Counted from the stretch's first letter, positions 30,217 to 31,614 are shown. The stretch: DNA of 64,000 nt from a virus (IMGVR_UViG_3300010352_001565:51055-115054), one strand, 5' to 3'. Notes: a model not told the origin generated them from the sequence alone. Numbers and translations: made by a program.

Positions 30217-31614
30217 ATGGCAGATAACAGAAACAGCAGGGACCTGGCAATCACAACAGGCCGGTTCGCCCTCGTCCTCGACCGCACTAAAGGTCACGTT
30301 GAAACGCTGACCGGTCCTTACAAATCCAGCCTTGCTGATACGCAAGCTCCTGTGAGGTTCGCACCTGAAAATCCGACAGGATACGTCGAATGCGAAAGCC
30401 CGCAGCAAGCTGTCCAACCTTACGTCACTGCCGCCCAAGGTCAGTACGTCGTTCTGTTCAACCCCGCGAACACGACCAAAGCTGCAGACAAGCAATACCC
30501 ACCTGAAGGCAAGCCAGAGCAACCCCCACCCCTCCAGATCGGGCACGTGGTCAACATCCCTGGTCCTGTAACGTTCGCGTTGTGGTGGCAGCAGAAAGTG
30601 GAAGTCATCGATGGACATCAGCTGCGCAGCAACCAATACCTCGTGTGCGAGGTGACCGACGAAGCTGAAGCTAAAGCGAACTGGAAAAAAGCAATCTTCA
30701 AAGCCACATCAGAAGGTGAAAACGCTGGCGACAAAATCGCCATCAAGAACTTGGACATCGCCAAGTTCACCATGGGCCAGCGCATCGTTATTCGTGGTGA
30801 CGAGATCAGCTTCTTCATTCCTCCTACCGGCATCCGCGTTGTGCGCGATTCGCGCAGCAAATACGTTCGCGAGGCAGTCACTCTCGAAAGCCAGCAGTAC
30901 TGCGTGCTCCTCAGCGAGAGCGGCACGAAGCGCTACCTGCAAGGTCCTGCGGTTGTGTTCCCGACAGAGACCGAATCGTTCATTGAAGGCTCTGACAGCT
31001 CGCGCATCTTCAAGTGCATCGAGCTGAGCCCGACAAGCGGCATCCACGTCATGGTCATTTCTGACTACGAAGAAGATGGCAAGGAAATAAAGGCGGGCAC
31101 CGAGCTGTTCATCACCGGTGAGACAACCCCGATCTACTACCCTCGCCCCGAGCACGCCATCGTCAAGTACGACTCTGCCAGCGTGATCCACTACGCCACG
31201 GCAGTTCCTGAAGGTGAAGGCCGCTACGTCCTCGACAAAATGGAAGGAAAAGTGCAGACGCTGATCGGCCCGAAAATGGCGCTGCTGAATCCGACTAAAG
31301 AGGTGTTCATTCGCCGCATCTTACCCGCAAGCAGGCTGAGCTTTACTTCCCTGGAAACAGCGAAGTGCTGCAAGCCAACCTTGCCATGGCCAGCACTGAA
31401 AGTGCATCGGACTACTCCAACCAGATCTCTTACAGCTCGGATGCGTCATCCGCATTGCGCAGCAGAACATTTGGTGCGTCATCCACGAGCCTGTCTGCCG
31501 ACATGGTGCAGCGCAAGAGCAGCTACACGCCGCCTCGCACGCTTACGCTTGACAGCAAATACAACGGTGCGATCCCGATTGCAATCTGGCCCGGCTACGC
31601 CGTTCAGGTGGTGA
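30217..31614 (+). CDS. major vault protein (MVP) homolog, N-terminal repeat domains (frame 1; genuine sequence probably ends ~31320)
   Basis: AAGGA Shine-Dalgarno. Repeats such as GRFALVLDRTKGHVETLTGP, GQRIVIRGDEISFFIPPTG, GTELFITGETTPIYYP and KVQTLIGPKMALL resemble MVP repeat segments (HYIHVLDQNSNVSRVEVGP, GQKRVVKGEKSFFLQPG, GDEWLFEGPGTYIP, KVRAVIGSTYML). The last ~95 aa are Arg-rich junk. Confidence 0.65.
   Translation: MADNRNSRDLAITTGRFALVLDRTKGHVETLTGPYKSSLADTQAPVRFAPENPTGYVECESPQQAVQPYVTAAQGQYVVLFNPANTTKAADKQYPPEGKPEQPPPLQIGHVVNIPGPVTFALWWQQKVEVIDGHQLRSNQYLVCEVTDEAEAKANWKKAIFKATSEGENAGDKIAIKNLDIAKFTMGQRIVIRGDEISFFIPPTGIRVVRDSRSKYVREAVTLESQQYCVLLSESGTKRYLQGPAVVFPTETESFIEGSDSSRIFKCIELSPTSGIHVMVISDYEEDGKEIKAGTELFITGETTPIYYPRPEHAIVKYDSASVIHYATAVPEGEGRYVLDKMEGKVQTLIGPKMALLNPTKEVFIRRILPASRLSFTSLETAKCCKPTLPWPALKVHRTTPTRSLTARMRHPHCAAEHLVRHPRACLPTWCSARAATRRLARLRLTANTTVRSRLQSGPATPFRW

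Follow-up and report, generated by a model that had tools for sequence, protein, structure and literature searches.

Homologs of MVP, the eukaryotic major vault protein, have already been described in bacteria (bioRxiv 10.1101/872010), and the first viral MVPs have been described in gut Caudoviricetes (bioRxiv 10.1101/2023.11.10.566534). The MVP-like family in phages is not new as such; a search of the latter report for frameshifted or truncated copies found no mention of these terms. A member of the family would be expected to be encoded as one polypeptide of about 800-900 aa, and the full MVP plan comprises a repeat array, an SPFH-like shoulder and a long cap helix. In the collections searched here, no fewer than 157 contigs of IMG/VR carried a full-length MVP-like gene, with lengths of 100-470 kb for many of these contigs, and such genes were also found in the huge phages LR756500, LR756501, and LR756503 (462-735 kb).

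Genes in which the reading frame changes are known from two further kinds of system. Programmed -1 sites, such as those of dnaX, the lambda G/GT tail chaperone, and IS3-family transposases, have traits that are well established, and programmed frameshifts are normally common to homologs. The accessory regions of phages also contain ordinary pseudogenes, arising by frameshift or nonsense mutation, and split genes. The gene described here shares the plan of the MVP homologs, but its ORF is split at 31320, and it can be compared with both of these systems.

The gene lies in a 64,000-nt stretch of viral DNA (IMGVR_UViG_3300010352_001565:51055-115054), referred to as the window, in which all positions are counted. 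The window belongs to a large uncultivated phage and is phage-like in content: it is densely packed with genes, most of which share one strand, and portal, tail fibre, and helicase/terminase-like proteins are among its PHROG matches. The same sequence is also present on a contig of 222.7 kb. The features around the MVP-like gene are as follows:

29027..30160, + strand: SPFH/Band_7 gene for a membrane-anchored protein of 377 aa (Pfam Band_7, 4.8e-18), directly upstream of the MVP-like gene
30217 (ATG) to 31612-31614 (TGA), + strand: ORF of 465 aa in frame A, open throughout
30217..31320, + strand: codes in frame A for residues 1-368, the N-terminal part of the MVP-like protein; an array of beta-rich vault repeats
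31296-31298, + strand: TAA in frame B, the upstream limit of the overlap between frames A and B
31299 to the stop codon that ends at 32705, + strand: frame B, -1 relative to frame A, open by translation
31318..31326, + strand: site of the missing base, from the DNA alignment with the nearest relative and the overlap of tblastn segments
31320..32705, + strand: codes in frame B for residues 369-829, the C-terminal part of the MVP-like protein; from Pfam, phmmer, the structure model, and codon usage
31321..31614, + strand: continuation of frame A past the shift, an out-of-frame, Arg-rich tail of 97 aa that stops with the TGA at 31612-31614
31608..31614, + strand: GTGGTGA, containing the frame-B GTG codons at 31608 and 31611, the latter overlapping the frame-A TGA

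When frames A and B are joined by re-reading C31320, they give a protein of 829 aa that can be recognized as an MVP homolog by several methods. With family membership judged by the gathering score, the frame-B part alone matched the Pfam families MVP_shoulder (6e-22; 78.3 bits, cut-off 25) and Vault_3 (2e-08; 34.6 bits, cut-off 28.8). In phmmer, residues 461-741 aligned with residues 466-760 of human and rat MVP at an E-value of 1e-20 (human, 1.4e-20), with weaker in-register matches over the repeat region. An AlphaFold model of the joined protein, built from 41 sequences and of moderate quality (mean pLDDT 70, pTM 0.38), was matched by Foldseek to human, rabbit, and rat MVP at E-values of about 1e-28, and to the murine MVP R1-R7 fragment at 5e-11. 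In this model, residues 9-365 form beta repeats and residues 371-397 short helices; residues 399-447 are a disordered loop, 454-489 a further repeat, 505-623 an alpha/beta shoulder, and 626-762 a helix of 137 residues. The C-terminal part begins with the helical insert and the disordered loop, continues with the last repeat and the SPFH-like shoulder, and finishes with the long cap helix and the C-terminal helices.

Two independent lines of evidence place the change of frame at nearly the same nucleotide. When the joined protein was used in tblastn, homology extended in frame A up to 31323 and in frame B from 31320 onwards. A codon-usage log-odds model trained on the other genes of the window, and as such independent of homology, ended its best frame-A segment at 31320 (score +164) and started its best frame-B segment at 31320 (+228). 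In the tail of frame A beyond this point the score was negative throughout, at -10 to -24 per 30 codons. These results agree with the first-pass annotation, which had read an MVP homolog in the frame of 30217 up to about 31320 and in the -1 frame thereafter, with an Arg-rich, low-complexity tail running to 31614; its frame B, open from 31299, was found to run as far as 32705. The 97-codon stop-free run of the tail is mildly unusual for this off-frame (empirical p ~0.034), and 13 off-frame runs of this length occur among the genes of the window. The Arg-rich tail is a by-product of the shift, neither evolved coding sequence nor a real domain.

The DNA alignment with L005, the nearest relative (ENA ERZ27245399 k141_2811798; 67% identical across 809 residues, its called product 72%), has a gap between 31319 and 31320. 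The interval defined by homology is ATCTTACCC, or in codons ATC TTA CCC, within CGC ATC TTA CCC GCA. At the site, the window reads CGCCGCAT-CTTACCCGCAAG and L005 reads CGCCGGGTGCTTAGCGCCAAG; in a longer alignment, TTCATTCGCCGCAT-CTTACCCGCAAGCAGGCTGAGC in the window is one base short of TTCATCCGCCGGGTGCTTAGCGCCAAGCAAGCTGAGC in L005. Reading C31320 (or A31323) twice restores ...FIRRILTRKQAELYFPG... at this position. Frame A translates as ...LLNPTKEVFIRRIL and continues into the Arg-rich PASRLSFTSLETAKCCK..., while frame B translates as ...LTRKQAELYFPGNSEVLQANL...; across the junction, which is also covered by QAELYFPGNSEVLQANLAMASTESASDYSNQISYSSDASSALR, the joined product reads ...EVFIRRILTRK.... 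The stretch 30217-32705 is to be treated as one disrupted MVP-like gene.

In the model, the N-terminal repeat array ends with a strand at 362-365. The break at residue 368/369 comes directly behind this strand and is followed by a helical and disordered insert, the disordered portion being about 50 residues long. By extrapolation from the phmmer alignment, in which query residue 356 corresponds to MVP residue 408, the break would correspond to about MVP residue 420. We take this position, from the domain boundaries of the rat protein, to be inside repeat R8, just before a flexible loop.

Over 5,000 homologs were found with the joined protein. Among the best 120, 118 were single proteins of 805-885 aa, with 97-100% query coverage and 39-58% identity; across thousands of metagenomic proteins, the joined product showed 35-58% identity over 97-100% of its length. 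The N-terminal part was 58-72% identical to the corresponding parts of intact homologs, which are about 830 aa long. The first-pass annotation had also called for a comparison with related genomes. We compared 164 non-self loci, 84 from metagenome, ENA, and Logan sources and 80 from IMG/VR viral contigs. All 164, the closest relatives L005 and L011 among them, gave a single in-frame tblastn segment across residues 350-390. The gene was a single uninterrupted ORF in 162 of them, the exceptions being L005 and L083, which are disrupted elsewhere. None of the 80 IMG/VR copies (L090-L169) was disrupted.

Could the change of frame be read through by the ribosome or the polymerase? Programmed -1 frameshifting or transcriptional slippage, which would yield a full-length MVP-like protein plus a truncated N-terminal form, had been among the options raised at first pass. 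The locus does share some features with the dnaX, lambda G/GT, and IS3-family sites: a shift in the -1 direction in a phage gene and a GAGGTG 12-15 nt 5' of the site. A hairpin just 3' of it (31327-31384), starting 1-7 nt beyond the site, may or may not be a stimulatory structure of the kind expected 5-9 nt downstream. This hairpin is moderately stable (-32.7 kcal/mol over 97 nt, z = -2.0), with 9 of 200 shuffled sequences folding equally well. Together, the hairpin and the GAGGTG loosely resemble -1 frameshift stimulators, and it also speaks for read-through that no allele other than the frameshifted one was sampled and that the downstream ORF is intact. However, the site differs from the known ones in lacking a slippery heptamer, conservation among homologs, and a coding signature in the zero-frame extension. 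The first-pass annotation had seen no classical slippery heptamer near the shift, and this extends to the entire 316-nt overlap (31299-31614), which contains no X XXY YYZ. In the zero frame of 31297-31614, neither such a heptamer nor a known single-codon slip site was found. Homopolymers of 4 nt or longer are absent from 31290-31620, and the shift point has no run of about 6 or more identical A/T, such as transcriptional slippage would use. Re-pairing of the tRNA after a -1 slip in CGC ATC TTA CCC GCA would be poor, and no Rfam elements were detected in 30000-33000, frameshift elements included. The GAGGTG carries less weight because the genes of the window do not use Shine-Dalgarno sequences. 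Most importantly, the shift is not conserved: every one of the 164 relatives is in frame here, even the sister lineage at 67-72% identity. The tail of frame A has no coding signature. With no positive support for it, we consider recoding of either kind highly unlikely.

The lesion itself was found repeatedly. The exact 465-aa frameshifted product is encoded on at least five contigs, from four sample accessions and with four contig-naming styles. They include:

ENA ERZ795026, NODE_110, 89.8 kb: carries the exact 465-aa product
ENA ERZ27257423, k141_566065, 36.6 kb: carries the exact 465-aa product
Logan SRR4236661, 13.6 kb: carries the exact 465-aa product
JGI 3300009692, 2.9 kb, listed for three samples: carries the exact 465-aa product

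The DNA of these contigs was 100% identical to the window, save for one SNP in ERZ27257423. This contig has a single difference in 15,380 nt, 32118 T>A (S635T), and contains the same deletion. The SNP falls in the MVP-like part after the frameshift; the chance of it landing there is about 0.09, which makes its position anecdotal. The called C-terminal product was also present on JGI contigs of 222,710 and 41,247 nt.

These contigs bear on another of the options raised at first pass, that of an assembly or sequencing indel, in which the true genome would have an extra base and a single ORF of 829 codons. One assembly does have low coverage (7.28, as given in the contig name), and as the copies are near-identical, some may come from the same or related samples. 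The same allele was nonetheless recovered in contigs of four sample accessions with four naming styles, one of them a genotype distinct by a SNP, and the context of the site is not a homopolymer. No intact allele was present among the proteins returned from a collection of 15 billion, and the codon-usage scan revealed no other clear frame break of the same kind in the 64-kb window. An artefact is thus very improbable, and the lesion in the MVP-like gene is a genuine deletion of 1 nt at about 31319/31320. All of the contigs recovered for this phage carry the deletion, which is fixed among them. The independence of the sampled populations is only partly established, as contigs may derive from related samples, and a minority intact allele or low-level recoding may be present. 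No near-identical DNA was found in GenBank phages, and single-protein scans of IMG/VR and GTDB genomes found no close relatives. The junction pattern TAAAGAGGTGTTCATTCG N{20,25} CTGAGCTTTACTTCCCTGG likewise had 0 matches in viral, metagenome, and genome collections; since these collections evidently do not contain this phage, the result is uninformative on polymorphism.

Of the three origins suggested at first pass, the evidence points to the third, a recent pseudogenising mutation. An ordinary, spontaneous, recent mutation that truncated or split the gene, became fixed, and is read conventionally, without programmed read-through, is in our judgement the likely explanation. A base was lost at about 31319/31320 from an MVP-like ORF of about 830 codons, and the resulting allele became fixed in the sampled population. 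The downstream frame is still intact, and the loss is presumably young compared with the split from the nearest relative. Ribosomes starting at 30217 would make residues 1-368 followed by the Arg-rich tail of 97 aa, and stop at 31614. The C-terminal part would be left untranslated, or be weakly translated by reinitiation at the GTGA of 31611-31614. The full-length MVP-like protein is probably not made, or only at the background error rate, and the gene would be dispensable.

The locus resembles ordinary phage pseudogenes and split genes in having a single lesion relative to intact orthologs, near-clonal fixation, and no compensating signal, and further in having a sister lineage with a different lesion. 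It differs from decaying pseudogenes in that no secondary decay is yet apparent. While the frame is disrupted relative to the intact orthologs, the 462 codons downstream of the break contain no further stop or shift, and neither secondary lesions nor relaxed constraint were found there. With L006 as outgroup, 21 unique downstream amino-acid changes were counted in the window and 23 in L005, so that the window shows no acceleration. Relative to L005, dN/dS was 0.09 in the N-terminal part, 0.12-0.17 in the middle, and 0.31 in the cap helix; the gradient in dN, rising from the N-terminal part through the middle to the C-terminal part, is the same as in the intact pair L006/L007. These values indicate that the gene has been under purifying selection for most of the divergence between the window and L005. 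The absence of lesions or excess change in the downstream half implies either a recent break or continuing use of this half, and the preservation of the sequence would fit a very recent event and continued use equally well. Selection after the lesion is not measurable within the phage, as the copies are identical except for one SNP.

Continued use of both halves would make this a functional split gene, in which the deletion is real, but both pieces are made and work, together or independently. The N-terminal array, with its tail, would start at 30217, and the C-terminal piece at GTG 31611 by reinitiation, at GTG 31365, or at ATG 31386. The position of the break is favorable to such an arrangement, as it comes after the last strand of the repeat array (362-365) and before the helical insert and loop, so that both pieces keep whole folded units. 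The murine R1-R7 fragment, which matches the model, was crystallized alone, and by Foldseek the C-terminal piece alone resembles the self-assembling SPFH proteins flotillin, HflK/C, and prohibitin. The downstream frame is intact, with dN/dS relative to L005 at the middle values given above. The GTGA overlap, moreover, is a classic coupling arrangement. From sequence, no obvious place other than GTGGTGA offers itself for termination-reinitiation of this piece, and it is where gene callers start a 364-aa product (L001-L003), within a cluster of products of 364/365 aa. The overlap is a by-product of the shift rather than an adaptation, however, because its codons encode a conserved VVKK. A product from 31611 would also begin inside the strand at 462-467 of the last repeat, and the candidate internal starts lack the upstream "TAG(C)" and promoter-like motifs of the window's real genes. 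With all copies essentially identical, selection after the split is not measurable, and across the 164 loci no other family member is organized as two genes. A working split gene is therefore rather unlikely in our view, if by no means negligible, and conventional reading of a recently truncated gene is the reading we prefer.

The relatives with disrupted copies deserve separate mention. L005 contains an in-frame TAA at codon 638 (positions 2336-2338 of L005), at the start of the cap helix, which is a lesion separate from that in the window; homology continues in the same frame past the TAA to the end of the contig. Stop-codon recoding in phages is known to involve TAG or TGA. We considered reassignment of the stop codon in L005, whose contig is 2.8 kb long, and regarded it as unlikely, the codon being TAA. 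In L083 (Ga0180434_10017106), the MVP-like ORF that starts at 2994 is full-length apart from an in-frame TAG, its codon 34, and could be a pseudogene or belong to a phage that reassigns TAG.

Because the two closest lineages carry different lesions, this sub-clade seems able to do without the MVP-like gene, or there may even be selection against it, although two observations amount to a hint only. Breakage of the gene could itself have been selected in the sub-clade, for instance as an escape from a host defence that senses the cage, or through an advantage of a truncated or two-piece form. Repeated selection to lose or shorten the full-length cage protein would fit the finding of lesions in two sister lineages, against only one other disrupted copy in the 164 loci. 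We give this explanation a slim chance, and yet place it above recoding independent of a slippery site that would fix the ratio of truncated to full-length protein, which is less likely still.

Several other features of the window were noted. The SPFH/Band_7 gene directly upstream is not part of the frameshift; the MVP-like gene next to it also has an SPFH-like domain, its shoulder. No such gene lies upstream in L005, L006, and L007, and one other locus, L070, has an SPFH gene in this place (32% identity). We had considered it as an addition specific to the sub-clade that made the MVP redundant, and dropped this idea, as the upstream ORF of L005 is unrelated.

The motif GTGATATAGTA, with at most one mismatch, occurs in 7 copies in the window (0.17 expected). 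Every copy is on the + strand, and the majority precede an ORF start by a short distance:

23127, + strand: copy of GTGATATAGTA
25485, + strand: copy of GTGATATAGTA
28365, + strand: copy of GTGATATAGTA
34219, + strand: copy of GTGATATAGTA
52056, + strand: copy of GTGATATAGTA
57349, + strand: copy of GTGATATAGTA
62924, + strand: copy of GTGATATAGTA

It resembles an extended -10 promoter (TGnTATAAT) positioned 5-15 nt before the ATG, a placement that suggests transcripts with a short leader or none. The copies at 28365 and 34219 bound the unit that contains the MVP-like gene. No Shine-Dalgarno sequences were seen before the gene starts of the window, while TAG or TAGC was present 3-8 nt before many start codons, for example those at 1436, 2556, 4121, 30217, and 43942. 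No tRNA genes were found in the window.

Further downstream, at about 38385-38391, coding potential apparently switches from the ORF at 37846-38439, which ends with a CxxC...CxxC motif, to the -1 frame. The latter is open from 37962 to 38765 (ORF 38061-38765), and encodes a Pro-rich linker and an end of the form CPMC...CEC; gene callers left 38439-38780 uncalled. This region, 37846-38765, could be a second -1 break, or contain a small gene starting from GTG 38361. Its protein is an ORFan, with itself as the only match and no homologs found.

For annotation, these results mean that 30217-32705 should not be described as a hypothetical protein of 465 aa followed by a vault/SPFH protein of 364 aa, and that it does not hold up as a candidate for programmed frameshifting and should be dropped as such. 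For the family, the truncation alleles found here and in L005 suggest that the MVP-like gene is dispensable, at least transiently, and they mark domain boundaries that tolerate a cut.
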